Shown here: positions 44,605 through 60,972 of the stretch, in pieces
Numbering within the stretch: the first letter of the stretch is position 1
Layout of the letters: every line of letters starts with the position of its first letter
Made by a program: the position numbers and the translations under genes
Notes under the pieces: model-generated
What the model was told of the DNA's origin: nothing
The model's input: the letters and a program-made list of their open reading frames with translations, nothing else
Databases searched by the model: none
NCBI GenBank assembly: GCA_965223705.1
Contig: OZ245015.1
Span: 4,320,001-4,384,000, forward strand
Direction: 5' to 3'
DNA: 64,000 nucleotides
Origin: Myxococcota bacterium
Lineage (GTDB): Bacteria > Myxococcota_A > UBA9160 > UBA6930

Positions 44605-44614
44605 GGAGTCTCCT

Positions 44615-46417
44615 TCAGCGCGCGCTCTCGAGCGACGCGCGCCTTCGTTTCGTTGCAGACTGATCGACCGAAAGCGTCTCGTCTGCGATAGAGCCCGAGA
44701 ACTCGACCCCGTAGACCTCGTTCGCTTGATCGATCGAAACGTAGCTTTCGATCACGTCTTCGAGCACGGCGGCGGGATCGCGCTCGAGCGGATCCCCGTA
44801 GCCACCACCCGCGACTTCGAGTCCCGACAACCACTGGTGCTTTCGCAGTTCGATCTGTCCGACGCTCGGCGCCTCCGAGCGATTGCCGTGTTCGTCGACA
44901 ACAAACATCCGACCCACGTTGCCGTCGCCACCGCCTCGGACACCGCGCGGCGGATTGACTTGGCCGTCGGCGGCGAATACGACCGTCATCGGGTGGTGAC
45001 TCGGTCCGTACGTGAGCTGCACGCCCGGCGCACCGCGGTGCGTGCCGGGGCCGCACGCGTCTTGCGTCAGGCGGATTTCTCTAAAGTGGATCGGATAACT
45101 CAGCTCGTTGATTTCGACGCTGTCGCGGTACATCAAGCCGGCGACCACTGGAATACCGTACGTGATCCAGCCATCCGAGTCCGGTGAACCCGGTCCGCCG
45201 TTGTTCCCGATGATGAGTTGGTTCACGTACGGATGATCGTCGTGACGCGCGTCCTTTCCCGAGATCACGCTGAAGCCTGCCCCCATGCCGATCCCGCCCT
45301 CGGCGAGGCCGTGGCCGGGGCCGAGATCGGCGAGTGCCGCTTGCACGTTGTTCAGCAAGCGCTCCGAAATGTTCGTGGTCGCGACCGAGCAGCTGTGCGG
45401 AAACTCAGGGATTCCGATCGCTGCACCTTCGCGCAACTTCATTCGAATGCACCGATAGGAACCGCCGTTGCGCGGGATATCGGATGGCAGACAGTTGTAG
45501 ACCCCCGCCACCGAGTTGCTGATCGAGCACGCGTGGGACAGATTGAGCCCGTTCTCCATGTTGTCGATGTTCGAAGTCAGATCGATCTCGATCACGCCCT
45601 CTTTCGGGTCGACCACGAGCCTGACGCGAACGGGGATGCCATCGGGAAGTAGCGGCGGCATCGGGTCGTGAAAGCTCTCGCGCGAAATCTCGGCTCCCGG
45701 AAGGTCGGCAATCGCCTGGCGCATACGCACTTCACTGTAGTCGAACCACTCTTTGATGAACTGCTTGATCGTCGCCTTCCCGTACTTGCGAAAGATGTCG
45801 TGGATCCGCTTTTCACCGGTTCGTGCGGACCCGAGCATCGACAGAAAATCACCGTGCCAATAGTCGGGCACGCGGATCCGCCGCTGACACATCCGGATGA
45901 TGTCATCGATCATCTCGTAGTCGCGCTGTACGCGGACCGCCGGGAAGATCAACGCCCCTTCTTCATAGACGTCTTTCGCCGCGGCGTGATAGGTCGTCGG
46001 AAGACTGTTACCGATGTCCGCTTGGTGAGCCTTTGCGCAAACGTTGAACAGATGTTCGCCTTCCCAGAACACAGGAACGATGATCGTGTGGTCCGCGGGA
46101 TGGGAGTTCCCCGCGTAGGGGTCGTTGTGTAGATAGGCGTCGCCCGGAGCGATGTCGTCGTGAAACTCACACATGGCGGCGCTCTGAAGGTTCAAGCCGT
46201 AGGTGTGCGCCGGCAAGCCCTCGGCCGTGGCAAAGAGCTCGTTGTCTCCCGTTGTGATTCCACAGGAAAAATCGCGCGCGCTGTTGATCACCGCGGAACG
46301 GCCGGTGCGGAGCATGGTGTTCGTCATTTCGCGCACGACACCGTCGAAACGGTTCGCCAACACGGCGAGCAACATCGGAGAGAGCGCCTCGGTACCTACC
46401 TTGAGATCACCGTCCAT
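44615..46417 (-). CDS. Hydantoinase B / oxoprolinase family subunit
   Basis: SARDFSC, NDPYAGNSHPAD, HQADIG, GGGYGDPLERD. Confidence 0.93.
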   Translation of the reverse strand: MDGDLKVGTEALSPMLLAVLANRFDGVVREMTNTMLRTGRSAVINSARDFSCGITTGDNELFATAEGLPAHTYGLNLQSAAMCEFHDDIAPGDAYLHNDPYAGNSHPADHTIIVPVFWEGEHLFNVCAKAHQADIGNSLPTTYHAAAKDVYEEGALIFPAVRVQRDYEMIDDIIRMCQRRIRVPDYWHGDFLSMLGSARTGEKRIHDIFRKYGKATIKQFIKEWFDYSEVRMRQAIADLPGAEISRESFHDPMPPLLPDGIPVRVRLVVDPKEGVIEIDLTSNIDNMENGLNLSHACSISNSVAGVYNCLPSDIPRNGGSYRCIRMKLREGAAIGIPEFPHSCSVATTNISERLLNNVQAALADLGPGHGLAEGGIGMGAGFSVISGKDARHDDHPYVNQLIIGNNGGPGSPDSDGWITYGIPVVAGLMYRDSVEINELSYPIHFREIRLTQDACGPGTHRGAPGVQLTYGPSHHPMTVVFAADGQVNPPRGVRGGGDGNVGRMFVVDEHGNRSEAPSVGQIELRKHQWLSGLEVAGGGYGDPLERDPAAVLEDVIESYVSIDQANEVYGVEFSGSIADETLSVDQSATKRRRASLESAR

Positions 46418-46432
46418 GTCGGTCCTCCGCGA

Positions 46433-48526
46433 CTACCCCTGGTCCCACGAAATCACGTAGCTTCCGGCGGCGCTCAGTTGCGCCCGGGCACCGGGAGGTA
46501 AAACAATCGTCGTCGTCGCTTCCTCGACGATCGCCGGCCCGTCGATGACATCGCCGAGTTTGACGGAATCGCCTCTCAGGATTGCTGTAGGCCGGGTTTC
46601 ATCCAGATCGAACATCGCGTCACGCACGCCTAGAGACCCTCCGACGACTTCTTGACCGTCCGCTCGGTGACTCGACTGCGGCAGATGAACCGCGAGGCGT
46701 CCCGTCCAGTTCAGGAACTCGATCGGAGAGTTGCGATCCTCGACACTGAAGATGCGGCGGTGGTTCGCATGAAACGCCTCGATCAGCTCGTCGACTTGTC
46801 GATCGGAGTCGAGCCGGTTTCCCCGGAGCGTCACGGGGATATCCCACACCTGCGCCGCGTAGTGTGCATCGACGCGATACTCGATCGAGTGATCGGTAAA
46901 ACCGCGCGAGGAGAGCTGCTTCGCGAAACCCGTAAGCTCTTCCTCAATCGCCTGCAGCCCCGCGTTGACCGCGTCGCGATCGAAGTGGTCCGATCGCGTC
47001 GGCACCGTGGTCGTCGCTTCGGTCTGAATGTCGGAGAATTGCATGCCACAGGCGGACAACACACTCGCCGTCCGCGGAATAATGACGTTGCGACACTTGA
47101 GCTCTCGCGCGATGGGCATGATCCCGAGGCCTGCAGCACCCCCGCCGGCGACGACGACCGTTTCGGCTGGATCGATCCCTTCGCTGACGGTGATGTCTTT
47201 GATCGCGTTGATCATCGTTTCGTTCGACACGGCGAAGACGGAGTAGGCCGCAGCGGAGACGCTGATTCCGAGCGGTTCGGCGATCGTCGCGAGCGCTGCT
47301 TTCGCCGCCGCTAAATCGAGTTTCATACGACCACCGAGAAAGTAGTCGGGATCGATATAGCCGAGCACCAACGCCGCGTCGGTGACCGTCGGATCTTTAC
47401 CGCCCATGCCGTAGCAAGCCGGGCCGGGGTTCGCGCCCGCGCTCTCGGGCCCCACCTTGAGGAGCCCAGCAGAGTCGAGCCAGGCGATCGAGCCGCCGCC
47501 AGCACCGACGCTGCGAGCGTCTACGGCCGGAATGCCCAACATGTGGCCGGTGAAACGCTCGCCCAACCAGGTTTCCTGGGTGATTGTGATGTTGCCGTCT
47601 CGCACCAGGCTGACATCAAACGTGGTGCCGCCCGTGTCGACGACGAGCACCGATTCGGCCTTGCCCTCGAGCTCCGCATAGCGCCGACCCGCCACCGGAC
47701 CCATGGCCGGCCCGGAGCGAACCGTATGGATGGGTTTTGCGACGACGCTTTCGACGTCGAGACAACCGCCGATGGTCGTGCTGACCAGGATTTCGCCCGC
47801 GTAGCCTTCCGCGCGCAGATCTTCTCGCAAATCGTTCAAGTGCGACTGCATGAGCGGCTTGATCGAAGCATCGATGGCGACGGACGACGCGCGCCGGTAT
47901 TCGCGCAAGATCGGATTGAGCTGATGGCTCAAGGTGAACGCCACACCCGGGAGCTCCGACGCGATCAGTTCGCCGAGGCGGATCTCGTGCGCGGGATTGG
48001 CCGTCGCCCAGAGGAGCGAGACCGCGCACGCTTCAAAGCCTCGCTCCCGGATCTCCGCCAACACGCCTCGCGCCTGCCGTTCGTCGAGCGGGGTGTAGAC
48101 GTCGCCTTGTGCGTCCATTCGTTCGTCGATTTCGAACGTGTAGCGACGCGGGACATAGGGCTTCGGGAACGGCTTCGAGAAATCGTGCGGGTCGAACTTG
48201 CCGCCCTCGCGGAGGACCAGCACATCGGGAAATCCAGCCGTCGTGAGAAAGGCCGTCTTGGCGACGTTCCCGGTGACGATCGCGTTGGTTGCGCGTGTCG
48301 TTCCGTAGACGAAGAGCTCGGCGTTGGCCAGCACATCGGCGAGTGACAAGCCGAGCTCCCCTGCCGCGGTTTCAAGGGCGGCCTTCAGCCCATTGAAGAT
48401 GCGATCGCGGGTGGTTAGGGCCTTCCCGATGGTGAAGCGACCGCTCGCGTCGGCGATCACCACGTCGGTGAACGTGCCGCCCGTGTCGACGCTGATCCGC
48501 CAGCCAACGGATGATTGTTGATCCAT
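46433..48526 (-). CDS. Hydantoinase A / oxoprolinase family ATP-dependent subunit
   Basis: DTGGTFTD, GTTRATNA, SGPAMG, DTGGTTFD, GAGGGSIA, SAGANPGPACYG, PTVTDA. Confidence 0.95.
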   Translation of the reverse strand: MDQQSSVGWRISVDTGGTFTDVVIADASGRFTIGKALTTRDRIFNGLKAALETAAGELGLSLADVLANAELFVYGTTRATNAIVTGNVAKTAFLTTAGFPDVLVLREGGKFDPHDFSKPFPKPYVPRRYTFEIDERMDAQGDVYTPLDERQARGVLAEIRERGFEACAVSLLWATANPAHEIRLGELIASELPGVAFTLSHQLNPILREYRRASSVAIDASIKPLMQSHLNDLREDLRAEGYAGEILVSTTIGGCLDVESVVAKPIHTVRSGPAMGPVAGRRYAELEGKAESVLVVDTGGTTFDVSLVRDGNITITQETWLGERFTGHMLGIPAVDARSVGAGGGSIAWLDSAGLLKVGPESAGANPGPACYGMGGKDPTVTDAALVLGYIDPDYFLGGRMKLDLAAAKAALATIAEPLGISVSAAAYSVFAVSNETMINAIKDITVSEGIDPAETVVVAGGGAAGLGIMPIARELKCRNVIIPRTASVLSACGMQFSDIQTEATTTVPTRSDHFDRDAVNAGLQAIEEELTGFAKQLSSRGFTDHSIEYRVDAHYAAQVWDIPVTLRGNRLDSDRQVDELIEAFHANHRRIFSVEDRNSPIEFLNWTGRLAVHLPQSSHRADGQEVVGGSLGVRDAMFDLDETRPTAILRGDSVKLGDVIDGPAIVEEATTTIVLPPGARAQLSAAGSYVISWDQG

Positions 48527-48572
48527 GGGCTACCTCGAGGGCCCATTACAGCACAATTTTCTGGGCCCTGAT

Positions 48573-49631
48573 CTAAGCGCCGACCTCGGGATAGTGCGTC
48601 GCCATATTCTCGGGGTAGCTGCGGGCGAAGTAGTTCCAGAGTTGCTCGCCGTAGACCGCGGGCCGATGGCGCGATTGCATGTCCCCGACGCCGGCCTCGT
48701 TTTCCTCTTTTCGCGCCATGAAGCCCGCTCCGGCGTGTCGCGGACTCGCCGCCACCGCTCGGGCGAACTCTTCCGAGAGCGGCAGCGGCGAAAGCGGCGT
48801 GTCGAGAGACGGCCCGTGGAAGTAGCCGGCCGAATAGCGCGTTTCCGTCGTAATCACCCGATGGGGCGTCGCGACGAAGTAATTGCCCGTCATTCCCTGC
48901 AGCATTTCACCGAGGTTGATCACCAGCCCGTCGGGGACGGTCTGAACGGGTACCCAGCTCCCGTCGCTCGACTCGATCTGAAGCCCCGGAGTCGGACCGG
49001 GCGCGAGGATGGTGAGAAAACCCGTGTCGTGGTGCGCGTTGACGCCGGCTCCGCCGGCGGGAGTCGCCGGGTAGCGAATGAGTTTCGTAAGCGACATCGA
49101 CTCGCCTTCGAAAAGATCGTTCAAATAGCCTTCGTCGAGGCCCAGCCCGAGCGAAAAGATCGCCATGAGTTCTCGCGCCAGCGCGTCGCATCGGGAGAAC
49201 CAGGCCTCGACGTGCGCCTGAAAGCCCGGAAGCACGTCATCCGGCAGCCACTGATTCGGGCCGAGCAAACGGAGATACGAAGGCGTCACATCGGGCGGGC
49301 GCGCGGGATTCTCTGTCCAGAGGTCGACCTGCTCTCGGATATCGGGGCGCCCGTTCGTGTATTCGGCCCCGAGGTCTTCCCAGCCCCGAAAGTGTCGCGA
49401 GTACCGCTTGTCGATCCGCGCCTTTTGCTCTCGGGGAAGCGCGAACAAGCGCTTCATCAGATCGAAGGTCTCCGCGAGAAACTCCCGGGAAATGCCGTGA
49501 TTCGTGACGATGAGAAAGCCCACGTGGTGGCAGATCTCGCGGACTTCGTCCGCGAGATTCGCCCGGTCGGCGGGAACTCCCCGCCAGCGGCTGAGATCCA
49601 CCACCGGAACCTTTGCTGCGTCCTCTGCCAT
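48573..49631 (-). CDS. 2OG-Fe(II) oxygenase, isopenicillin N synthase family
   Basis: VPVVDLS, GFLIVTNHG, HxD (AHHDTG), TPHRV, RYS. Confidence 0.92.
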   Translation of the reverse strand: MAEDAAKVPVVDLSRWRGVPADRANLADEVREICHHVGFLIVTNHGISREFLAETFDLMKRLFALPREQKARIDKRYSRHFRGWEDLGAEYTNGRPDIREQVDLWTENPARPPDVTPSYLRLLGPNQWLPDDVLPGFQAHVEAWFSRCDALARELMAIFSLGLGLDEGYLNDLFEGESMSLTKLIRYPATPAGGAGVNAHHDTGFLTILAPGPTPGLQIESSDGSWVPVQTVPDGLVINLGEMLQGMTGNYFVATPHRVITTETRYSAGYFHGPSLDTPLSPLPLSEEFARAVAASPRHAGAGFMARKEENEAGVGDMQSRHRPAVYGEQLWNYFARSYPENMATHYPEVGA

Positions 49632-49680: not shown

Positions 49681-50835
49681 TTAGCGCTGCCGTTGTGCTT
49701 CCTCCGCACCGCGCAGCGATATCCGTACCCGCTCGGGGTTGATATCGACGATGGACAGGTCATTGGGCTTCTTCACATCGTCCACGGACACCGAGAAGGT
49801 CCTTCGACCGAGTCTCGCGAGGTAGGCGTCGATCTCGACGGAGACGCCGTCCTGTTCCGTGAGCAGAAAATCGCGCCGCTGCCCCCGCAGCTTCACTTCG
49901 AGCGTGCCGGGCTGCACCGACTCGAGGACGAGATCGTCGGGGAGATTGTTGATGCGAACCGAGGCGGTGACCGTCGCTTCGTGAAGATCTGAGCCGAACA
50001 CAAAGAGAACCCACAACGCGACCGATCCGGCGATCGCGAACAGCGCGTCTCTCCGGCCGTACCACCAGGGCGCGGCCTCGTCGGACTCATCGTCGTCGGC
50101 CCCGCGAAGCTCCAGTGCGAGATCTTCGGGGCGGGACAACACGCGCAGCTGACCACCGCGTGCCACCGATACCGTCCCGCGTTCCTCAGAAACCGCGATG
50201 CAGATCGCGTCGCAACGTTCGGAGAGCCCCAGAGCGGCTGCGTGTCGTGTGCCGCCCGCGCCGAGCTCTGCGTGATTCCCGGAAAGCGGCAGGTGGATTG
50301 CGAAGCGCTCGACGACGTCTCCGCGAATCAGCACCGCGCCGTCGTGCCCCGGCGAGCTCGCATCGAAGATCGACAGCAGCAAGGGCTCGCTGAGCCGGCC
50401 CGCAAGACGCACCCCGCCTTCGAGGTAGCGGTCGAGCGTCTCCTCCCCGGGAAGAACGATCAGGGCTCCCGTACGCGTGGACGCAAGGCGCGCGACCGTC
50501 CTCACGAGTGAATCGTGAGCCTCGTCGTCGACGGGCGCCTGAGTCTGCCCGGGGCGGAACCTGCCGAGTTGTTCAAACACCCGCCGCAAGTCGTCTTGAA
50601 AGACCACGACGAGTATCAAGACGAGCACCGCGAAAAACGCCCGGAGAATCGAAGCCGTGACTTCGAGCTCCAACCTCGTCGCGAAGAAGTAGATCGCTCC
50701 GAGGACCGCGAGCCCGACGACAGCCGCCCGGGCGTGCGTCGCCCGCATGTAGCGGATCAGTAGCCAGCCGAGCGCCGCAACGATCGCGATGTCGAGGACG
50801 TCGAGCCAACCAGGTATGGGGAACCAAACAGGCAT
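49681..50835 (-). CDS. dacA: Membrane diadenylate cyclase (CdaA-type) fused to a YbbR/CdaR-like domain
   Basis: Three N-terminal TMs (LDIAIV...VVVFQDDLRR), GALIV, HDGAV, GTRHAAA, VSEERGTVS; additional TM then YbbR-like VRINNLPDDL...EVKLRG...INPERVRI. Confidence 0.88.
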   Translation of the reverse strand: MPVWFPIPGWLDVLDIAIVAALGWLLIRYMRATHARAAVVGLAVLGAIYFFATRLELEVTASILRAFFAVLVLILVVVFQDDLRRVFEQLGRFRPGQTQAPVDDEAHDSLVRTVARLASTRTGALIVLPGEETLDRYLEGGVRLAGRLSEPLLLSIFDASSPGHDGAVLIRGDVVERFAIHLPLSGNHAELGAGGTRHAAALGLSERCDAICIAVSEERGTVSVARGGQLRVLSRPEDLALELRGADDDESDEAAPWWYGRRDALFAIAGSVALWVLFVFGSDLHEATVTASVRINNLPDDLVLESVQPGTLEVKLRGQRRDFLLTEQDGVSVEIDAYLARLGRRTFSVSVDDVKKPNDLSIVDINPERVRISLRGAEEAQRQR

Positions 50836-50858
50836 AGAATCAATCGCCGGATTCGGTG

Positions 50859-52163
50859 CTAGATCTTCGACATCAGCAGAGTCGCTATACCGAGGAAACT
50901 GAAGAAGCCCACCACGTCGGTCACGGTCGTCAAGATGATAGACGAAGATTGGGCCGGGTCCTGGCGCAGTGCAGTGAGAACCATCGGGATCACCGCACCG
51001 GACAAGCCCGCCAACGTCATCGACAACACCATCGAGAGCCCGATGACGAGACCGAGGCCCCATGATTGGCTCCAGAAATAGACGGCTACCGAGGTGGTCA
51101 ACGCGACGGCCACCCCGTTTCCCGCGCCGGCGAGCATTTCCTTCGCGGAGACTTTGAGCCAGTGCCGTGTGCGGACCTCCCGCAAGGCCAATCCCCGCAT
51201 CGTCACGGCAAGCGCCTGTGCACCCGTATTTCCAGATTGGCCGGCCACGACGGGAAGGAGGACTGCAAGCGCTGTCACAGTCGCGATGGTCTCTTCGAAG
51301 AGACCGACCACCGTCGCGGCGAGAAAGGCGGTGAGTAAGTTGACTTGCAGCCAAGGCAAGCGTTTCCGAATCGCGAACAGCGGCGAAGAGAGGGCACGCT
51401 CTTGGTCGCTGGCGCCGACCATGGTGATCGCACTGGCCAGTGCCCGCTCTTGGGCTGCCTGTACGAGCTCTTGTTGGCGCAGCACCCCCATGAGACGACC
51501 GTCGATGTCGACGACCGGAAGGCTGCCGACGCGCTGCGCTTCGAAGGTTTGAACGATCTCATCGCGGGAAGCTACGACGGGCACGCTGACCGGCGTGCCT
51601 CTCACCAGACTGTCGAGCCTCACGCCATCCTCGGCCAGTACGATCGATTCCAGGGGAACGGATCCCTGAAGCACACCGTCGGCGTTGACAACGAAGACAT
51701 CTTGATCGCGACGGCTTCGAAAAGTCTTCAACCGTTTCACCACATCCTGTGTGGAGGCATCCGGTCGGAAGCTCGTCGCCCGCGGATCCATCAGGGAGCC
51801 GGCGGTTTCGGGCGGGTACTCGAGTAGCGCACGCAGCTCCTCGGCCAGATCGTGATCGAGGACCTCGAGGCAGCGTTCCAGCTCATCGGGGTTGAGTCGC
51901 GCGAGCATCGCGGCCGCTCGGTTCTGGCTCAACGCCGAAAGAACCTCGCGCCGACCGGTTTCCGAGAGGCTTGCGACAATCCGGGAGGCGCGGTCCGGAG
52001 TCAGTCGCCCGATCACAGGCAGCATGACCGCCGCGCCGAGGGTCTCGAGAAAGGCGGCAGATTCGGCATCGTCGCCCGTTTCGATCAGCCGGGCCGTGGC
52101 GTCCGGCTCGGCGATCGCGAGGAGCGAGGCCAACGCGCGATCCGCGTTCTCCGAATCAGGCAC
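50859..52163 (-). CDS. mgtE: Magnesium transporter MgtE
   Basis: YPPETAGSLM, CBS pair, KRLPWL, GQSGNTGAQ, DPAQSS, TTVTDVVG; GTG start 52163. Confidence 0.93.
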   Translation of the reverse strand: MPDSENADRALASLLAIAEPDATARLIETGDDAESAAFLETLGAAVMLPVIGRLTPDRASRIVASLSETGRREVLSALSQNRAAAMLARLNPDELERCLEVLDHDLAEELRALLEYPPETAGSLMDPRATSFRPDASTQDVVKRLKTFRSRRDQDVFVVNADGVLQGSVPLESIVLAEDGVRLDSLVRGTPVSVPVVASRDEIVQTFEAQRVGSLPVVDIDGRLMGVLRQQELVQAAQERALASAITMVGASDQERALSSPLFAIRKRLPWLQVNLLTAFLAATVVGLFEETIATVTALAVLLPVVAGQSGNTGAQALAVTMRGLALREVRTRHWLKVSAKEMLAGAGNGVAVALTTSVAVYFWSQSWGLGLVIGLSMVLSMTLAGLSGAVIPMVLTALRQDPAQSSSIILTTVTDVVGFFSFLGIATLLMSKI

Positions 52164-52986
52164 TTCGGTCCCCTTCTCCAGCCGAGCCGGCAAATGCGTC
52201 GAGCAACCCGCGAGCTCCTGCGGAAATGATCTCGCCGATGGCCGCGCCCGCGTCGGCGTCCTTGCCGCGCCGTGCGAGGAGCGACGCTTCGAGGTCGCGA
52301 AGCGTTCGGTAGCGAATCGCCCCCAAGTATTCTCCGCCCACGTCGACGACCGGCAGAGCGTGCACGTCCCTCCAACCGGGATGCGCCACGACGGCCGCCC
52401 GGTCGGCGGTTGCAGCGATTCGGTGCGGAGCATTCACCATGAGCTCGGCGATTGGCGTGTCCGGATCGGCGAGAAACAGCTCCCGCAAGTTGAGCGCACC
52501 GACCAGGCGCTGCTCTTGATCGACGATGTAGAGGTTGTACCGAGTGGCCTTGGGGTCTTCTCGAACTCTTGCGAGGGCCTCTCCCGCCGTCAAGCCGTGT
52601 GCCAACGCGAGAACATTGGGATCGAGAAGCGCTCCCGCGGTTCCCTCGCGAAATCGCAAGAGCCCGCGGACGTCTCGTTCGGTCTTGCGCGGGAGAAGGC
52701 GCAGCAGCTCGTCGCGTCGCCCGTCGGACATGCGACGAAGCAAGCGTGCGCAAAGCTCGATGGGAAGCTGCTTGAGCAAGCCCGCCACTTGCTCCGCCCG
52801 GAGTTCCGCAAGTGCCGCCGTCGCGTGATGAGGAGACAGTCGGCGCAAAATACCGATCGCACTCTCGGGCTCGAGGCGAGCCAGGATTTCGGTGGTCTCG
52901 CCGGGAGAGAGCCGTTCGAGTGCGAGGGTGGCACGCTCCGGGAAGGTGTTGAGCAATTGATCCGCCAGGCGTCGCGTGAGCGTCAT
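52156..52986 (-). CDS. Soluble MgtE N-domain + CBS pair protein
   Basis: MgtE_N-like helical repeats, EGTAGALLDP, LYIVDQEQRLVG, LPVVD; no TM domain. Confidence 0.85.
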   Translation of the reverse strand: MTLTRRLADQLLNTFPERATLALERLSPGETTEILARLEPESAIGILRRLSPHHATAALAELRAEQVAGLLKQLPIELCARLLRRMSDGRRDELLRLLPRKTERDVRGLLRFREGTAGALLDPNVLALAHGLTAGEALARVREDPKATRYNLYIVDQEQRLVGALNLRELFLADPDTPIAELMVNAPHRIAATADRAAVVAHPGWRDVHALPVVDVGGEYLGAIRYRTLRDLEASLLARRGKDADAGAAIGEIISAGARGLLDAFAGSAGEGDRSA

Positions 52987-52997
52987 GACCCCTCTCC

Positions 52998-53828
52998 TCA
53001 GCGCAAAACGACCCGCTCGAGAAGGTGAGCGTTCGGCACACTCCACACCTCGTCGTCGCTGCGCACCAAGGTATCGACGGCCCCGACCCTCTCGACCAGC
53101 CCGCGGCGGCCATCGATCTCGACGGCCGTGTTTTCGGGAAACGATTGCTTCATGAAATGACCCGCGAGGATATGCGTAATGAGTGGCCTCGCACCGAGAG
53201 CGAACGCGAGTCCGACGGCAAGGCCCGCTGCCCCCACCATGACCGTGAGCGGAAGAACGAAGACCTCGACCGCAATGCCGAGCTGCTCGGCGGCGATCGC
53301 GAGCATCAATCCGACCACCGCGATCTGCGCCATGAACCCGAGTCGCGGTGCGGAGAGCAAACCCGCGGCCGCGGCGCCCGAGCTCACCAAAGTCGCGACG
53401 AATCGCCCGAGGACGAGCCCGCCCAGGCCGATCAGCGCCGCGCCGATCACGTTGGGGATGAAGGCGATCAGCCGATCGATCGTGGTGGTCACCGCCTTGA
53501 GGCCGAGCGTTTCAACCGCCGACAACAAGAATGTAAGCATCACGAGCCAGAACAGCAGACGAGCGACGATCTCCGAGAAACTGAGGTTCAGCCCGGCGCG
53601 ATCCAGAAGATCGGCGATCTTGAGACGCGCCGCGGCGCGGTCGAGCCCGAGGGCGCGCAGGCCGCGACCCGCCACCATCTCGAGTCCGCTCGAAACGAGC
53701 CACCCCAACGCGAAGATCAGCACGGCCCCGACGAGGTTGGGAAGAAAGGCCGCCACGTTTCCGCCGAGCTCAGAAAACACATGGACAAGAACCTCGCGCA
53801 GCGCGTCGAGGTTGAACAGTTCGCTCAT
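52998..53828 (-). CDS. Small mechanosensitive channel (MscS/CmpX-like) protein
   Basis: Two TM_helix repeats (AFLPNLVGA / AFIPNVIGA), GLAFALGAR, C-terminal beta domain ending VPNA. Confidence 0.85.
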   Translation of the reverse strand: MSELFNLDALREVLVHVFSELGGNVAAFLPNLVGAVLIFALGWLVSSGLEMVAGRGLRALGLDRAAARLKIADLLDRAGLNLSFSEIVARLLFWLVMLTFLLSAVETLGLKAVTTTIDRLIAFIPNVIGAALIGLGGLVLGRFVATLVSSGAAAAGLLSAPRLGFMAQIAVVGLMLAIAAEQLGIAVEVFVLPLTVMVGAAGLAVGLAFALGARPLITHILAGHFMKQSFPENTAVEIDGRRGLVERVGAVDTLVRSDDEVWSVPNAHLLERVVLR

Positions 53829-53872
53829 CGTCTCTCTCCTTGTTTCAGGAAACTTTGGGGCTCGGTGTCGGC

Positions 53873-54895
53873 TCAGGTGAGCTCTGTCTCATCGGTCAAC
53901 TCCTCGTGAAAGCTCTCGACCGAATCCGCGACCCGCTCCGGCACGTCGAAGAACGCGACGTGAAAGAGAGCGTCCCCCTCGTTGACGAGGGGAAGCTCTG
54001 TCCGACCGATCACGACACCCGCGTGCGTCGCCTTGACGATGACTTCTTCCGCGCCCAACGGGTCCGCGATGACTCCGAGCTGATCCCCGGGTTCGACTGC
54101 GGCGCCCAACTTCAAGCGCTCGCGCAGGATCCCGCTGTCCGGCGCGCGAACCCACTTACTGGCCTGCGCGACGAACGGCCGCCCGACGCCCTTGCTCCGC
54201 GGCGGCTTGACCATGCCCAGGGCGCCCATCACGCGCAGGGTGCCGTAGGCGCCCGCTTGGATGGGGGCTTCGTCAAAGCGGAGCGCTTCTCCCCCTTCAT
54301 AGAGGAGCATGGGAATGCCCCGGTCGACCACCGCTTGTCGCAACGAGCTGTCGCGGAGGGTCGCGTTCACGACGACGGGAACTCCAAAAGTCCTGGCCAG
54401 ACGCTCCGTCTCGGCATCGTCCAAACTGGCTCGAATTTGCGGCAAGTTCGAGCGGTGCACGGCCGCCGTGTGGAGATCGATCCCATGCGTCGATCCTTCC
54501 ACCACTTCGGAGAGAAACAAGTGCGCGAGTCGAGACGCGAGCGATCCCTGAGGCGATCCCGGAAACGAGCGGTTCAGATCTCTCCGATCGGGCAAATAGC
54601 GGGTCAATCCGACGAAGCCGTAGAGGTTCACGATCGGAACCGCGATGAGCGTACCGCGCAAGGCACGGAGGCTCCGATGGGCGAGGACGCGACGAATGAT
54701 CTCGACGCCGGCGATTTCGTCACCGTGCACCGCGGCGCACACGAACAAACGGGGACCCGGCTCCCGACCGCACACCACTTCTACCGGGAGCGCGACTTGG
54801 TTCCCGCTCACCCGTTTCGCGAGGGGTATTTGAATCCGTTTCCGCTCGCCGGGCCCGATTCGCTCGCCGGCGAGAAGAACCTCGGGATCAGGCAC
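53873..54895 (-). CDS. Succinylglutamate desuccinylase/aspartoacylase (M14) family zinc hydrolase
   Basis: VHGDE, RDLNRSFPG, IDLHT, YEGGE; C-terminal biotinyl-like domain. Confidence 0.92.
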   Translation of the reverse strand: MPDPEVLLAGERIGPGERKRIQIPLAKRVSGNQVALPVEVVCGREPGPRLFVCAAVHGDEIAGVEIIRRVLAHRSLRALRGTLIAVPIVNLYGFVGLTRYLPDRRDLNRSFPGSPQGSLASRLAHLFLSEVVEGSTHGIDLHTAAVHRSNLPQIRASLDDAETERLARTFGVPVVVNATLRDSSLRQAVVDRGIPMLLYEGGEALRFDEAPIQAGAYGTLRVMGALGMVKPPRSKGVGRPFVAQASKWVRAPDSGILRERLKLGAAVEPGDQLGVIADPLGAEEVIVKATHAGVVIGRTELPLVNEGDALFHVAFFDVPERVADSVESFHEELTDETELT

Positions 54896-55352
54896 GTCGT
54901 GCCCTTCCCCTCTTTGCTTTCTTTTTCGGAGCCTGAACCATCCGGCGGCTCGGGTCGATCAGGAAGGGCCCCGACAGCGCGGTCCGTCCCAGGAGCATGC
55001 GGTGGATCATCTTCCCGCGATTGACCAGGCTGAGATCGACGTCGCGCTCGACGGGCCCGAGTCTGATCCGCGTTCGAACGAAATAACGAGTCTCGGTTTC
55101 TCCGTTGCTCGAACGGACGCGTGAACGCCTCAGAACGCGTGCGGTCACGTGCACACGTCGATCTCGTCGCTCTCGATGGAGGACAACGTCGAATCGAATC
55201 CGCCCGCGCGGAAGCTCGACCACGTTTTCGACGTGGAGGGCGCTTGAGCGGGCGCCGGTATCCACCTTTGCGCGGAGCTTCTTGATGTTCCAATCGGGCA
55301 GGTCGACGTACTCGGTCCACCCAATGAGGACGGGCTCGTCGTCCGATCTCAT
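54888..55352 (-). CDS. RimB-like retropepsin-fold protease ('ATP-dependent zinc protease' family)
   Basis: IGWTEYVDLP, AKVDTGARSSALH, VRSSNG, MLLGR; ATG overlaps the rimK stop. Confidence 0.88.
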   Translation of the reverse strand: MRSDDEPVLIGWTEYVDLPDWNIKKLRAKVDTGARSSALHVENVVELPRGRIRFDVVLHRERRDRRVHVTARVLRRSRVRSSNGETETRYFVRTRIRLGPVERDVDLSLVNRGKMIHRMLLGRTALSGPFLIDPSRRMVQAPKKKAKRGRARRA

Positions 55353-56581
55353 TCGCTGGGCACCGGATCCGACGACTCGCGAGCGTTCGGCGCCTTTCGC
55401 TTGCGTACCTTCCGACGGGGCTTGGGCGCGAGCCCGCGTAGAGTGAGCATCTTCCCGAAGCAGAACAGGGTGTCCCCGGCCAGGATCTCGCGGTCGTTTC
55501 GCGGGTTCGGAATCGAGACACTGCCTCGCTGGATCGTCAGGATCACCACGTCGAGACCGCGCAGGCCGGATCCTTTGACGGTTTTCCCGCACAGGTCCGA
55601 GCGCGGATCCACGGGGATCTCCATAACGCCGTACCCGCTCTGTAGTGTGAGGCGCTGGCGAATGTCGATGTCGGGGAACAGGACTTCTTGCTCGATCAGG
55701 GAAATGATCTCACCGGCCACGTCGATTCCCGTCGCCGTTTCGATCCCCTCCAGACCGGGGGACGAGTTGACTTCCATCAACATCGGACCGTCGTTGCCTT
55801 CGAGGAGATCGACGCCCGCAACGCGGAGCCCCATGACCTGCGCTGCGTTGACCGCCACGCGCTCGTATTCCTCGTCCAGGGTGACGACCTCGGCAGAACC
55901 ACCGCGGTGGATGTTGCTGCGGAACTCATCGCCTTGCGCCTGGCGGCGCATCGCCGCGACGACACGAGAGCCCACGACGAAGGCGCGGATATCCCGACCT
56001 TTGCTCTCCTTGACGAATCGCTGCAGCAAGACGCTCATCTTCGCGGGCCCCGAGAGGGTTTCGATGATGGCCTCTGCCACTTTCGTCGAATCCGCGAGGA
56101 TCACCCCGACACCTTGGGTGCCCTCGAGAAGCTTGATCACCACGGGCGGCCCGCCCATACGCTCGATGCCCGGGAGGATCTCCGAGGTGTGCCGAACGAA
56201 GAGTGTCGTAGGAAGGCCGATCTTGTGGCGACTCAAGGCCTGGAGTGCGCGAAGCTTGTCGCGAGAAACCGTGATCGCGTGAGAGGGGTTCACGCAGAAG
56301 ACGCCCATTTGTTCGAACTGGCGGACGACGGCGGTCCCGAACGCCGTGATCGAAGCGCCGATTCGAGGGATCACCGCGTCGTATTGCGAGAGCCTCTTGT
56401 TCTTGAAGTAGAGGTGCGGGCGACTGGTCTCCACTTCGATCGTGAAGGAGAGCGGGTTGAGTACCTTCGCCTCGTGCCCCCGTTGGGTCGCCGCCTCTTT
56501 GAGGCGACGCGTGCTGTAGAGACGCGGCCCACGTGAAAGGATCGCGATCTTGAGAGAGTCGGCCTCTTCTCTCGCAGCCAT
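55349..56581 (-). CDS. rimK: RimK family alpha-L-glutamate ligase fused to a C-terminal RCK_C (TrkA-C) domain
   Basis: LYSTRRL, IPRIGAS, SRDKLR, KLLEGTQGVGV, FRSNIHRGG, EVNSSPGLEGIE; then EIPVDPRSDLCGKTV...ILTIQRG...PNP...ILAGDTLFCFG (RCK_C). Confidence 0.93.
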   Translation of the reverse strand: MAAREEADSLKIAILSRGPRLYSTRRLKEAATQRGHEAKVLNPLSFTIEVETSRPHLYFKNKRLSQYDAVIPRIGASITAFGTAVVRQFEQMGVFCVNPSHAITVSRDKLRALQALSRHKIGLPTTLFVRHTSEILPGIERMGGPPVVIKLLEGTQGVGVILADSTKVAEAIIETLSGPAKMSVLLQRFVKESKGRDIRAFVVGSRVVAAMRRQAQGDEFRSNIHRGGSAEVVTLDEEYERVAVNAAQVMGLRVAGVDLLEGNDGPMLMEVNSSPGLEGIETATGIDVAGEIISLIEQEVLFPDIDIRQRLTLQSGYGVMEIPVDPRSDLCGKTVKGSGLRGLDVVILTIQRGSVSIPNPRNDREILAGDTLFCFGKMLTLRGLAPKPRRKVRKRKAPNARESSDPVPSE

Positions 56582-56731
56582 AACCACCCCACCGTGAAGA
56601 GCACGAGCACCGTCTTGCTCGCTCTTCGTGTCATATACCAGGTTTCCGACGGGATGGGAAAGGGATGACGGTCCGCCCAGGCGTCTCAGAGCTTGTATTG
56701 TCTCGCGACGAGGCGAATGGAGACTCGCAAG

Positions 56732-57796
56732 ATGGACAGAGAAACGCTCACGTGGGCCGGAATCGCGCTGTGTCTCGTTCAGTCCGGAATGTTTTCGGGA
56801 CTGAATCTGGCGCTTCTGGGTCTCAGCCGTCTTCAGTTGCAGGTCGAGGCAGAGTCGGGAGATCCTGCGGCGTCCCGAGTCCTGGCTCTCCGTCAGGATT
56901 CGAACTTCCTACTCACGACGGTGCTCTGGGGCAACGTGAGTGTGAACTGTCTACTGACCCTCCTGTCGGACTCGGTCCTCTTCGGCGTCGCTGCCTTCGC
57001 GTTTTCGACCTTCGGCATTACGATCGTCGGAGAGATTCTTCCCCAGGCGTATTTCTCGCGAAACGCCATGCGCGTCGGTGCGGCGCTGACGCCCTTCGTC
57101 CGCTTCTATCAGTGGGTTCTCTTTCCAGTCGCAAAACCCACCGCTCTCCTGCTCGACGCGTGGCTCGGCGAGGAGGAAATCTCCTACTTTCGCGAGCGCG
57201 AACTCCGCGAGGTGATCCGTCAACATATGTTGGCGGAGGACGCCGACCTCGAAAGCCACGAGGGTCTGGGTGCCCTCAACTTCCTCGTGATGGATGACCT
57301 CCCGATCGGTCAAGAGGGAGAGGCCGTCGATCCGGCTAGCGTCATCTCGCTCCCTGTCGCCGTGGACTTGCCGGTCTTCCCTTCGATCCGTCGGGACGCG
57401 GAAGACCCCTTCTTGAAGAGGGTCGAACAAAGCGGCCACAAATGGATCGTCATCACGGATACCGAAGAACAGCCCCGCCTCGTACTGGACGCGGATGCTT
57501 TTCTGCGCGAGGCCCTGTTCGGTACGGGTGAGCTCGATCCGTACTCGTTTTGCCATCGACCCATCGTCGTCGACAACGCGCGCGTCCCCCTCGGTGTCGC
57601 GATCCGACGACTCCATGTCGAGCCGGAGCACAAAGAAGACGACGTTATCGACCAGGATCTGATTCTCGTCTGGGCCGATACGCGTCGAATCGTCACGGGA
57701 GCGGATTTACTCGGGCGCCTCTTACGCGGGATCGTCCGCAAGCGTCGAGCGTCGCAGGCACAACGGGCACCCGTGCTGGCCGCCCCGTCCGAGTAG
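56732..57796 (+). CDS. CNNM/DUF21 domain membrane protein with degenerate CBS region
   Basis: SGMFSGLNLALLGL, LLTTVLWGNV, GEILPQA, FPVAKP; start 56732 or 56717. Confidence 0.88.
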   Translation: MDRETLTWAGIALCLVQSGMFSGLNLALLGLSRLQLQVEAESGDPAASRVLALRQDSNFLLTTVLWGNVSVNCLLTLLSDSVLFGVAAFAFSTFGITIVGEILPQAYFSRNAMRVGAALTPFVRFYQWVLFPVAKPTALLLDAWLGEEEISYFRERELREVIRQHMLAEDADLESHEGLGALNFLVMDDLPIGQEGEAVDPASVISLPVAVDLPVFPSIRRDAEDPFLKRVEQSGHKWIVITDTEEQPRLVLDADAFLREALFGTGELDPYSFCHRPIVVDNARVPLGVAIRRLHVEPEHKEDDVIDQDLILVWADTRRIVTGADLLGRLLRGIVRKRRASQAQRAPVLAAPSE

Positions 57797-57809: not shown

Positions 57810-58685
57810 TCAGAGGTACATCCCGACGCCTTCCCCCGGCTTCGTCGGAGGCGGCGCCTCGGCGCTACGCCCGGCGAGCATCTCTTCGTGGGTCACGCCG
57901 CCGAACATCTGCTTCAAGCGATCGTCCCATGTGTCGGCTGTCGAAGCGACCATCTCGATCGCGAAGCGGAGCTCTTCTTCCCTGAATTCAGAGCCGAGAA
58001 TGCTCTCGTCAAACCAGATCGAGCGATTCTCGGGATCGAGTGCAAAACGGCCGAACATCAGTCCGAAGTTGAGTCTCGCGAGGAAGAGACCGAGCTCGGG
58101 CGTGACGACGACACCGACATTGGTAATCGCGAAGACGCGAATCACCACGCGCCCATTCGGCATGGCGCGGGGAGCGACCATGAGGTGGACCCCGGCCATG
58201 GGAACGACGTAGTCGCCATCGTTGTCCTTGTCCGGTCGTCGCCCGAGGATCTCCGCAACGACGCTTTCGATCCGGACTCGCGCGAGGGCGAGCTTCTTCT
58301 TCGCTTCGTGCTCGAGTTTGCGGCTGCCGTGTGCGATGTCGAGTTTCAATTCGGGCTTTTCGCCAAAGACCTCCACCAGGAGTTGTGTCAGCTGATCCAC
58401 CGCGGCTTCGGCCTCGGGCGCGGCTTTCGTCCAGGGGTTGGCCGCGTTGGCCGGATCCTCGGAACTGAATCCGCGCTCCCTCAGAGCACGCCGCACGTCC
58501 GCGTCGAGCTCGGGCACAGATCGAGGGCGCCCCGGCACCGAGACCTCGAGCCCGCCGTCCTCCCGGCGGTTGATCTCCGCGACATGAAGCGGACGCCCCG
58601 ACGGGACCACGGCGATGAAATCAAGCGGTTCGAGCGCCTCGACCTCGGCAATCAGAAAGGCTGTCGCGACGGAAGGATCGGCCAT
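57810..58685 (-). CDS. YbjN / T3SS-chaperone (CesT-like) domain protein
   Basis: C-terminal DNDGDY...LARLNFGLMFGRF...ADTWDDRL..FGG pattern; GAGAG RBS. Confidence 0.7.
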   Translation of the reverse strand: MADPSVATAFLIAEVEALEPLDFIAVVPSGRPLHVAEINRREDGGLEVSVPGRPRSVPELDADVRRALRERGFSSEDPANAANPWTKAAPEAEAAVDQLTQLLVEVFGEKPELKLDIAHGSRKLEHEAKKKLALARVRIESVVAEILGRRPDKDNDGDYVVPMAGVHLMVAPRAMPNGRVVIRVFAITNVGVVVTPELGLFLARLNFGLMFGRFALDPENRSIWFDESILGSEFREEELRFAIEMVASTADTWDDRLKQMFGGVTHEEMLAGRSAEAPPPTKPGEGVGMYL

Positions 58686-59136: not shown

Positions 59137-60972
59137 ATGTTCCTTCGAGCGCGCGGTTTGGCAATCTTGATTGCGGTGCCGTTGTTCGCTGCGACCTCGA
59201 TCACCGGGGCAGGTGCCGCGGAGGCACCGCCGATCCGCAATGTCCGAGAGATCATCTGGCGCGGGGCCGAAGCAGTACCCGTCGGTGAGCTCGAAGAAGC
59301 GATCTTGACGACCCGAGCGAGCCGCCTTCCGTGGGTGGAATCGCGCCCTTTCGAAGAGGACGTCCTCGACGGGGACGTCCATCGTCTCCGGAGCCACTAC
59401 CGTCAGCAGGGATTCTACGAGGCCGAGATCGGCGCCACCGTGGAAGCGGTGGGAAAAAGCCGGGTTCGCGTCGTCTTCGACATCGAGGAAGGTGAACCCG
59501 TCAACCTCACAACCTTTGATTTCTCCGTCTCCGAAGTGATTCCGGAGTTGTCCGAAACCTCCCTGCGAGAAGGGCTAGCCCTCAAGGTCGGCGAGATCTT
59601 CAGCGTCGCGCGCTACCGCAAGAGCCGAGATCGCATTCTCAACCGGCTGGCCGACGTGGGATATCCGGCTGCGCGCGTTCAGGGCGGGGCGGATGTCACG
59701 CTCGAAAACCGCGAAGCCGTGGTGCGTTGGTTGGTGCACCCGGGGCGCCGGGTCCATCTCGGCGATTTTTCTGTCGAGGGACTCGAGCGAGTCGAACGCG
59801 AGCTCCTCCTGCGGGAGTTGCCACTCCGAGAGGGCGAGCTCTATTCGCGTAAGCGGATCCGAGACGCCCAGCGCGCCTTGTACGACCTCGGTCTGTTCGC
59901 CTCCGTAGCGATCGAAGCGCGGAGCCCCGGGAAAGGCGGGACGAACAACGCTTCGTGGCCGGTCGAGATACGCGTCAAGGAGCGCGAACCGCGCTCCATC
60001 CGTTTCGGCTTGGGCTACGGAACCGACGATCGCCTCCGCGCGCGCGGGGAGTGGCAACATCGAAACTTCCTCGGCGGCCGTCGCTCTCTTGCGCTCGAGG
60101 GAAAGGTCTCGTCTCTCATCCAAGGCTTCGAAGCCACCTTCGTCCAACCCCGCTTCATCGATTGGGACACGGACCTGACCCTCGATCTCCAGTTCGCCCA
60201 AGAGACGACGCCGGCCTTCGACAGCGAGGGGGTTGCCCTGGGCTGGTCGGTCGAGCGGCCGATTTTCGAGAAAGTGACTGTCCGCGGCGGCCAGCGTTTC
60301 GAGCTTCAGAAGGTGACGGAAATCGAAGCTGACGATCCACTCGTCTCCGGCGATGAGGACGAGTCGTTTCGTTTGAGCGTGCTGCAGTTCGGTTTGCGCC
60401 GGGTAGACGTCGATTCCGTGGTCGATCCTCGTCGGGGCACCTGGCTCGACCTCACGCTCGAGCCGTCGCTCAAAGCTTTGGGCTCGGAAGTCGACTACGT
60501 GCGGTCCGTCCTGGACGTTCGGGGTTACACGCCCGTCGGCCCCATGGTCCTGGCAGCCCGCATGCGGCTCGGCGCCCTCGAACCGCTGCGCGACGACGGC
60601 GCTGGCGCGGTCCCCGTCTTCAAGCGCTTTTTCTCCGGCGGCAGTGCGTCCGTGCGTGGCTTCGATCTAGACCGTCTCGGCCCCCTCGACGACAACGAAG
60701 ATCCTATCGGCGGTCTGACCGTCGCAGAGGTCGGGGTTGAGCTGCGTTTCCCTCTGTGGAAACAACTCGGCGGTGTGTTGTTCACCGACGCCGGCCAAGT
60801 GAACCGTCGCTCCTTCCACCTGGGCGGTAGCGAGTTCTTCTACTCGACGGGTGTCGGCTTCCGCTACGCGACGCCGATCGGTCCTCTCCGCGTCGACCTC
60901 GCCCAGATCCTCAACCCGCCCTCGGGTATCCAGCCCTTCCGCATCCATTTCTCGATCGGACACGCGTTTTGA
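59137..60972 (+). CDS. tamA: Omp85/TamA-type outer membrane protein
   Basis: Signal peptide, three POTRA-like domains, FFSGGSASVRGF, TPIGPLRVD, C-terminal SIGHAF. Confidence 0.9.
   Translation: MFLRARGLAILIAVPLFAATSITGAGAAEAPPIRNVREIIWRGAEAVPVGELEEAILTTRASRLPWVESRPFEEDVLDGDVHRLRSHYRQQGFYEAEIGATVEAVGKSRVRVVFDIEEGEPVNLTTFDFSVSEVIPELSETSLREGLALKVGEIFSVARYRKSRDRILNRLADVGYPAARVQGGADVTLENREAVVRWLVHPGRRVHLGDFSVEGLERVERELLLRELPLREGELYSRKRIRDAQRALYDLGLFASVAIEARSPGKGGTNNASWPVEIRVKEREPRSIRFGLGYGTDDRLRARGEWQHRNFLGGRRSLALEGKVSSLIQGFEATFVQPRFIDWDTDLTLDLQFAQETTPAFDSEGVALGWSVERPIFEKVTVRGGQRFELQKVTEIEADDPLVSGDEDESFRLSVLQFGLRRVDVDSVVDPRRGTWLDLTLEPSLKALGSEVDYVRSVLDVRGYTPVGPMVLAARMRLGALEPLRDDGAGAVPVFKRFFSGGSASVRGFDLDRLGPLDDNEDPIGGLTVAEVGVELRFPLWKQLGGVLFTDAGQVNRRSFHLGGSEFFYSTGVGFRYATPIGPLRVDLAQILNPPSGIQPFRIHFSIGHAF

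Follow-up and report, generated by a model that had tools for sequence, protein, structure and literature searches.

The 64,000-nucleotide (nt) stretch of DNA analysed here (the window) comes from contig OZ245015.1 of a Myxococcota genome assembly (GCA_965223705.1; 4.56 Mb, 95% complete). It contains seven minus-strand genes that run from rimK, encoding a predicted glutamate ligase with an RCK_C domain, through genes for a RimB-like protease, an M14-type hydrolase, a CmpX/MscS-type membrane protein, a soluble MgtE_N-CBS protein and MgtE, to dac, encoding a predicted membrane diadenylate cyclase fused to a YbbR domain; a CNNM gene is divergent (Table 1). All eight genes had been given named domains in a first-pass annotation, and these are borne out by Pfam and NCBIfam profile matches. 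The same annotation read the locus as a single wired module, in which the cyclase supplies cyclic di-AMP (c-di-AMP) to up to three co-encoded receptors. Our analysis revealed a different picture: the cyclase belongs to a family that recurs next to Mg2+ transporter genes in two phyla, while the rimK-rimB-M14 arm, together with Mg2+ and MscS genes, is widespread, also without a diadenylate cyclase nearby.

Table 1. Features of the rimK-dac locus and their positions in the window
Feature	Position	Strand	Matches and motifs
rimK with TrkA_C (RCK_C) domain and basic tail, alpha-L-glutamate ligase	55349..56581	-	NF007764 337 bits (cut-off 331); PF02080 E 3e-8; Pseudomonas RimK 7QYR E 7e-98
RCK_C domain of RimK	55391..55654	-	Arg and Pro at the positions of the KR...SP stretch in KtrA/KtrC
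rimB-like retropepsin, predicted poly-glutamate protease	54888..55352	-	DTG motif; PF05618 E 1e-23; NF052261 97 bits (cut-off 200)
M14 / AstE-AspA zinc hydrolase, predicted glutamyl-peptide trimming	53873..54895	-	HGDE, NR, DLH and E motifs; PF24827 E 3e-35; 3CDX E 9e-21
CmpX/MscS-type membrane protein, putative channel	52998..53828	-	PF05552 E 5e-17; NF033912 69 (cut-off 100); six hydrophobic segments (hydropathy)
Soluble MgtE_N-CBS protein	52156..52986	-	PF03448, PF00571; zero hydrophobic segments; top PDB matches are MgtE cytosolic domains
mgtE, Mg2+ channel	50859..52163	-	PF01769, PF03448, PF00571; 2YVX E 3e-43; TM5 aspartate retained
CdaA_N-DAC-YbbR accessory cyclase, 384 aa	49681..50835	-	PF19293, PF02457, PF07949
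DGA catalytic motif preceded by metal-ligand His	50335..50343	-	H164-A167 invariant in 32 aligned members
RHA replacing canonical RHR (family signature)	50239..50247	-	Ala in 120/120 best homologues and 102/107 tree rows; Arg in 0
CNNM/DUF21 membrane protein, divergent, putative Mg2+ exporter	56717..57796	+	PF01595 E 2e-34; human CNNM4 E 6e-26, bacterial CorB E 1e-4

Accessory cyclase and the neighbouring Mg2+ transporter genes

The start of the cyclase gene was set at position 50835 and not at 51354, the start of the longest open reading frame (ORF). According to Pfam matches and hydropathy, the chain consists of three transmembrane (TM) helices, the DAC (diadenylate cyclase) domain, a fourth TM helix and a single YbbR domain. 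Its AlphaFold2 model (predicted local distance difference test score, pLDDT, 86.7) superimposes on CdaA and CdaM in Foldseek with a root-mean-square deviation of 1.4-2 Å, and the residues of the HDGA, TRH and SEE motifs are invariant over the 32 aligned members, which share 34-60% identity. Besides the RHA signature, the family carries a histidine in place of the CdaA tyrosine before LPLS (120/120 best homologues). The second DAC gene of the host genome is found in a canonical folP-cdaA-cdaR locus and has RHR; the window cyclase is an accessory one, distinct from this housekeeping gene, and canonical cdaA is also present in the same genomes as other RHA-type cyclases. RHA is found elsewhere in another DAC class, in one verrucomicrobial and one planctomycete genome, and histidine at the position of the CdaA tyrosine occurs in an actinobacterial DisA-type cyclase. 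As both replacements occur naturally in other DAC classes and the ligand residues are invariant, catalysis is likely, and the predicted accessory cyclase is likely to synthesize c-di-AMP. The natural RHA variant also offers a way to ask whether the third residue of RHR matters.

Of 8000 candidate proteins, 5062 match the cyclase at E<=1e-60, and the Atlas clusters of the family come from Myxococcota and Acidobacteriota. The gene was found in about 104 of the 151 genomes of the host class (hand count, best match E<=1e-50), in 27/98 genomes of a second phylum (centre labelled Thermodesulfobacteriota) and in 2/251 genomes of Planctomycetota; plasmid searches yielded no full-length RHA fusion. Full-text literature searches did not find a fused diadenylate cyclase-YbbR protein in Deltaproteobacteria, although Galperin 2023 may already catalogue this fusion.

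An MgtE, CorB/CNNM or CorA gene was located within 3 kb of the cyclase in 23 of the 55 host-class loci, which are best hits to the window cyclase, three of them picked for nearness to rimK, and in 7 of the 20 second-phylum loci; the chance expectation of such proximity in the host genome is 0.85%. At 16/43 loci the transporter gene is no more than 500 bp away, mostly as the immediate co-directional neighbour. Metagenomes gave 80 loci in an alignment scan (none in a single-protein scan), mostly short, of which 31 entered the analysis, a tag or sufficient length being required; 15 of these 31 have a transporter gene within 3 kb, a share biased by the keep rule. In all these neighbourhood counts kin share context and are not independent, and some rows are duplicates.

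The maximum-likelihood tree of the cyclases contains 107 rows, including 50 of the 55 host-class loci (the other five were broken, or short and without a tag), 18 of the 20 from the second phylum and eight of nine others; the housekeeping cdaA was dropped because of its short locus. The tree is midpoint-rooted and gives no direction of change. The window cyclase falls in a starred clade of 28 rows, 25 of which have a Mg2+ transporter gene (13/16 among genome-derived rows), the partner alternating between CorB, MgtE, CorA and CNNM; in a second starred clade 9 of 12 rows carry a transporter tag. Over the whole tree the Mg2+ transporter state changes 13 times.

Apart from CorB (CNNM-CBS-CorC), MgtE and CorA, genes that recur near the cyclase are those for Usp and the rim trio, together with genes of osmotic or glutamate functions: MscS, a Na/Ca exchanger, GDH, an rloBC-like pair and glgE/amylase-type genes. 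At second-phylum loci, dac lies directly upstream of mgtE in 7/20 loci and is convergent with rimB-rimK-M14-CNNM in 4/20; in most of the others (L230-L246) the RHA cyclase follows a glycerate kinase gene (DUF4147-MOFRL). In one of these, L236, the kinase gene is followed by a glycosyltransferase gene of the mannosylglycerate-synthase type, a hint of compatible-solute synthesis. The rloBC-like set, in which genes for a seven-TM inactive transglutaminase and ATPgrasp_ST are joined by one for an unannotated ~420-aa protein and frequently by another M14 gene, was seen beside other RHA cyclases at loci L100, L103, L114, L264, L266 and L268 and in genome C1 (800730-805588); at two of these loci, L100 and L103, this set and the cyclase are separated by a gene for a glutamate-receptor-like ion channel.

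MgtE of the window has the MgtE_N domain, the CBS pair and the five-TM domain, and its pore aspartate D416 is invariant among 22 relatives; its TIGR00400 score is 221 (cut-off 233). The soluble MgtE_N-CBS protein, for which 569 homologues were found at E<=1e-20 among 8000 candidates, is a paralogue of the MgtE cytosolic domain: seven PDB entries match at E<=1, six of them MgtE-type and one IMPDH. Its identification with DarB was rejected, since MgtE_N is present and the PDB matches are of the MgtE type, not DarB or OpuCA. Atlas clusters of this protein are commonest in Pseudomonadota. Of 21 other host-class genomes that have such a protein, three encode it near the cyclase, and in Pelagicoccus a cmpX-mgtEN-mgtE set occurs near rim with no RHA-type cyclase.

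The divergent CNNM gene reported in the first-pass annotation does encode a DUF21 domain on the plus strand, but its product has no Pfam match for a CBS pair; its membrane domain is far nearer to human CNNM4 than to bacterial CorB. Close relatives of this CNNM protein were also noticed near the cyclase type or rimK at L098, L122 and L133. The label of MscS-like channel was a loose one: PF05552 does match and is the sole match, but the MscS cytoplasmic cage (PF00924/PF21082) is unmatched at E<=0.001 and the NF033912 cut-off is missed.

The rimK-rimB-M14 arm

The ATP-grasp residues of RimK are present in the alignment to 7QYR, and RpsF of the host genome has an acidic tail whose last residue is Glu. 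The adjoining RimB-like protein has no hydrophobic segment. The rimK-RCK_C fusion is widespread: its best 80 loci are spread over Planctomycetota, Actinomycetota, Verrucomicrobiota and further groups, and rimB and/or M14 adjoin in most. The fusion of RimK with RCK_C makes this protein a candidate ligand-gated glutamate ligase.

Across 55 sequences of the RCK_C domain the Pro is invariant and the Arg is retained in at least 90%. Its best structural profile match is PH0236; KtrC (6I8V), KhtT (7AGV), 4XTT and, with a similar score, MthK match as well. The R169A variant of KtrC is insensitive to c-di-AMP (PMC11067040). Within the family to which a Leifsonia genome belongs, however, an RCK_C of the RimK type with the same conserved Arg was found in 21/81 genomes, while a domain search detected DAC in none of the 81 (controls matched in 11/14), and one genus has the full rimK-RCK_C fusion in 7/7 genomes with no DAC found. 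The domain is thus not an obligate c-di-AMP receptor, and the Arg gives no evidence of c-di-AMP binding, so that the equation of this residue with binding was rejected. Moreover, RimK is ~300 aa long at three of the four dac-rim loci in the second phylum, and the absence of RCK_C was confirmed in the two that were scanned. The role of RCK_C as a c-di-AMP receptor, proposed in the first-pass annotation, is therefore unsupported, as is the wider scheme of up to three receptors, the soluble CBS protein not being DarB and both RCK_C and rim/Mg2+/mscS sets occurring without DAC.

A rimK match is present in 33/151 genomes of the host class; 30 genomes other than that of the window have a full-length rimK-RCK_C, and 27 of them also have the cyclase. 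Of these 27, six have the two genes no more than 10 kb apart and nine no more than 20 kb apart, in varied orders, both counts being lower bounds because many assemblies are fragmented. In the host class the cyclase thus lies near rimK-RCK_C more often than expected by chance, and this excess is real. The proposed dac-rimK linkage holds to this extent, and at 4/20 loci of the second phylum, but dac was found within 10 kb at just 3 of the best 80 rimK-RCK_C loci. One apparent rimK, at L101, was rejected as a distant ATP-grasp gene (25% identity, no rimK match in its genome); those of L154 and L157, on the same branch, are probably distant ATP-grasp genes too. The rimK counts given here do not draw on these neighbourhood labels.

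The rim trio accompanied by mgtE, corA/zntB, mscS or usp, with no DAC gene in the stretch of each record, was found in V. europaeus, Salinivibrio, Phaeobacter, Acaryochloris and V. nigripulchritudo, in the last of which it adjoins ectoine genes. Two further Vibrionaceae records have rim genes without Mg2+, MscS or Usp neighbours, and one Bacteroidota record has M14 only. Diguanylate cyclase genes are next to or near the rim trio in the V. europaeus and Salinivibrio records; in the former, a plasmid (L274, 5346-13451), this gene was observed 28 nt upstream of a rimK-M14-rimB-mgtE-corA-mscS-usp set. In P. fluorescens the rim genes are accompanied by the EAL protein RimA (PMC7343187); no EAL protein was found among the 12 window proteins scanned.

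Organization of the locus and flanking genes

From rimK to dac, the intergenic gaps of the seven minus-strand genes are -4, -8, 44, 11, -8 and 23 nt. The tight co-directional packing is real, but it does not define a seven-gene unit, as such packing is ordinary in the host genome and the run goes on: according to our own gene calls, the gap is at most 50 nt in 68% of 2808 co-directional pairs, 34 runs comprise seven genes or more, and beyond dac the run continues, after gaps of 49 and 46 nt, into 2-oxoglutarate (2OG)-dioxygenase and hydantoinase-like genes. Because of this continuation the unit is not delimited; an operon is plausible, with its ends not delimited. The seven-gene order was present in 1/151 genomes of the host class, the window's own, and a conserved seven-gene module was rejected on this ground. 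A promoter scan of the locus revealed no sigma-70 sites and terminators at chance level, an Rfam scan found no riboswitches and a single chance match to a snoRNA, and GC content and GC at third codon positions (GC3) give no clear sign of recent transfer.

The genes prolonging the run (43237-49631, minus strand) are a 2OG-Fe(II) dioxygenase gene, two hydantoinase/oxoprolinase-like ORFs and an aminotransferase-like ORF, the last three named by sequence; dioxygenase homologues were not seen beside other cyclases of this type in the neighbourhoods compared. On the other side, upstream of the module, a minus-strand gene at 57810-58685 encodes a two-domain protein of the YbjN / type III secretion system (T3SS)-chaperone fold (TY-Chap3 and TY-Chap1); the rimK operon of E. 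coli includes ybjN. It is followed by a BamA/TamA-like gene on the plus strand (59137-60972 and beyond). A BamA/TamB-like pair is recurrent near the cyclase or rimK (L089, L104, L106, L122, L143, L144).

Possible roles and related systems

Several explanations of the locus were weighed. One treats it as a co-regulated neighbourhood of osmotic-stress genes only, in which genes for Mg2+ channels, MscS, rim, rlo, glucan and glutamate functions shuffle and the cyclase feeds a global pool without a local receptor. This appears somewhat unlikely. It would account for gene orders that differ in nearly all genomes, for the rim, Mg2+, MscS and Usp sets that lack DAC in V. europaeus, Salinivibrio, V. 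nigripulchritudo and Phaeobacter, and for the excess of host-class genomes with the cyclase over those with a rimK match. However, the transporter gene usually adjoins the cyclase directly and in the same orientation, an arrangement tighter than a loose island predicts, and the dac-mgtE adjacency recurs in the second phylum. At the other extreme, c-di-AMP could bind both the RCK_C domain of RimK and the CBS proteins, replacing the c-di-GMP of Pseudomonas RimABK. The KtrA/KtrC-type Arg and Pro kept in RCK_C, together with the loss of c-di-AMP sensitivity in KtrC R169A (PMC11067040), agree with such wiring, as do the nearness of cyclase and rimK-RCK_C genes in part of the host class and the second-messenger enzymes that flank rim elsewhere, both RimA in P. 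fluorescens (PMC7343187) and the diguanylate cyclases of V. europaeus and Salinivibrio. Against it stand the same Arg in genomes with no DAC found, the short RimK of most second-phylum dac-rim loci, the rarity of dac at the best rimK-RCK_C loci, and PH0236 and MthK as equally good or better structural matches, and we consider it improbable.

A related reading, to which we give no greater weight and which is likewise improbable, takes RimK-RimB-M14 with Mg2+ and MscS genes as a conserved module that is re-wired in each lineage: to c-di-GMP in Pseudomonas and Vibrio, and here to c-di-AMP from a dedicated RHA-type CdaA-YbbR cyclase, acting through RCK_C and the CBS pairs of MgtE/CorB. If it were true, a c-di-AMP-controlled modification of the ribosome or of poly-glutamate, and a cyclase dedicated to Mg2+ transport, would each be a first. 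It is very improbable that the RHA protein is a membrane sensor with little or no catalytic activity, or produces a different nucleotide, and works through contact with the housekeeping CdaA or a transporter. Two active-site changes are family-wide (RHA for RHR, and His for Tyr before LPLS), and a canonical cdaA is present in the same genomes; nevertheless, all family members keep the metal and nucleotide ligands, and RHA and His are natural in other DAC classes.

The explanation that we favour, with confidence about evenly balanced, is that the locus comprises two separately evolving modules, and that the accessory membrane cyclase, predicted to be active, helps to set Mg2+ flux during osmotic shifts. 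The genes, motifs and neighbourhoods described above are established; activity, sensing, ligand binding and co-transcription are inferred. The outward-facing YbbR domain and the TM helices would sense the state of the envelope or turgor, as proposed for CdaR, and the DAC domain would make c-di-AMP in addition to the housekeeping CdaA. The functional partner would be the adjoining Mg2+ transporter, MgtE here and CorB or CorA in relatives. A direct effect, by binding of c-di-AMP to the transporter CBS pair in analogy to B. subtilis MgtE, is a tentative proposal; alternatively, the effect could be indirect, through K+/Mg2+ exchange. In the second module RimK may glutamylate RpsF or build poly-alpha-glutamate, which RimB would cut and the M14 enzyme would trim, and this arm would be a co-regulated part of the osmotic response that does not need c-di-AMP. 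RCK_C of RimK more likely serves dimerization or binds another ligand; direct control of RimK by c-di-AMP is possible but unsupported.

The favoured mechanism fits the behaviour of c-di-AMP and Mg2+ in B. subtilis, where both drop and recover together upon osmotic upshift and Mg2+ re-import limits the recovery (PMC8844918). It also fits what is reported of the related Rlo glutamyl system, which has an osmotic role (PMC12239564), and the osmotic or glutamate genes that recur near the cyclase speak for it too, as does the acidic, Glu-ended tail of RpsF.

Several observations weigh against this explanation. The link of the cyclase to Mg2+ import and export genes, anticipated in the first-pass annotation, is found repeatedly in two phyla, with transporters of three unrelated folds, but it is absent from all nine loci of other Myxococcota classes and Planctomycetota (0/9 within 3 kb), and over half of the host-class cyclase loci have no transporter gene within 3 kb; the choice of host-class loci and the kinship among rows, noted above, tell in the same direction. 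CorA is not known to have a CBS pair, and hence a single binding mode cannot cover all transporter partners. The cyclase misses the TIGR00159 (CdaA) cut-off (168.7 vs 188.8 bits), and a c-di-AMP phosphodiesterase of the DHH or PgpH type was not found in the 95% complete host genome despite its two DAC genes. RHR is deemed essential in papers that tested it solely in triple RHR-to-AAA mutants, which were dead (PMC3328451, PMC4568413, PMC13022847). Finally, MgtE of B. subtilis binds c-di-AMP (PMC8844918) and that of S. aureus does not (PMC11686323), so that binding cannot be assumed here.

c-di-AMP is known chiefly as a regulator of K+ and osmolytes in Firmicutes. Its link to Mg2+ has so far consisted of MgtE binding and parallel fluctuations in B. 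subtilis, the regulation of the CorB/MpfA exporter by c-di-AMP being left open in that work (PMC8844918). The occurrence of this cyclase gene next to Mg2+ transporters of three unrelated folds, in two Gram-negative phyla, supports the link independently at the genomic level and supplies concrete pairs for testing. What gives the locus its value is the cyclase family with its Mg2+ partners, the seven-gene string itself being a one-off. Full-text searches found no paper uniting rimK, rimB and mgtE; PMC10219603 names rimK in its reference list only.

Compared with Pseudomonas RimABK, the locus has a RimK above the NCBIfam cut-off, an adjoining RimB-like protease, an acidic RpsF tail in the host and a cyclic-dinucleotide enzyme nearby; it differs in the RCK_C domain of RimK, the extra M14 gene, a DAC gene nearby where RimA was not found, and the Mg2+ and MscS-type genes. 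The soluble MgtE_N-CBS protein shares tandem CBS domains with the c-di-AMP-binding CBS pairs of DarB/CbpB and OpuCA, and is distinguished from them by its MgtE_N domain. In the dacZ-mscS2 operon of Haloferax volcanii a diadenylate cyclase is likewise co-encoded with a mechanosensitive channel; DacZ, however, is of the soluble archaeal class and is the main cyclase there, and the accessible text of that report mentions neither Mg2+ nor rim genes (PMC6741144).

The closest counterpart of the cyclase in architecture is the CdaA (DacA)-CdaR/YbbR pair of the Firmicutes cdaA-cdaR-glmM locus, which has the same three N-terminal TM helices, DAC fold, HDGA/TRH/SEE residues and YbbR after a TM helix. 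In the window protein, CdaA and a single YbbR are joined in one chain with RHA and with His before LPLS, and its gene is a second copy besides the canonical cdaA, with Mg2+ transporter genes as neighbours instead of glmM. In B. subtilis the genes for cyclase, MgtE and MpfA are not known to be linked. The circuit formed there by c-di-AMP, MgtE and MpfA (CorB-family) shares with our locus a cyclase, an MgtE importer, a CNNM/CorB-type protein, here a putative exporter, and the osmotic theme; the regulation of MpfA by c-di-AMP is left open in its description (PMC8844918), whereas here a dedicated cyclase gene is physically linked to the transporter genes.

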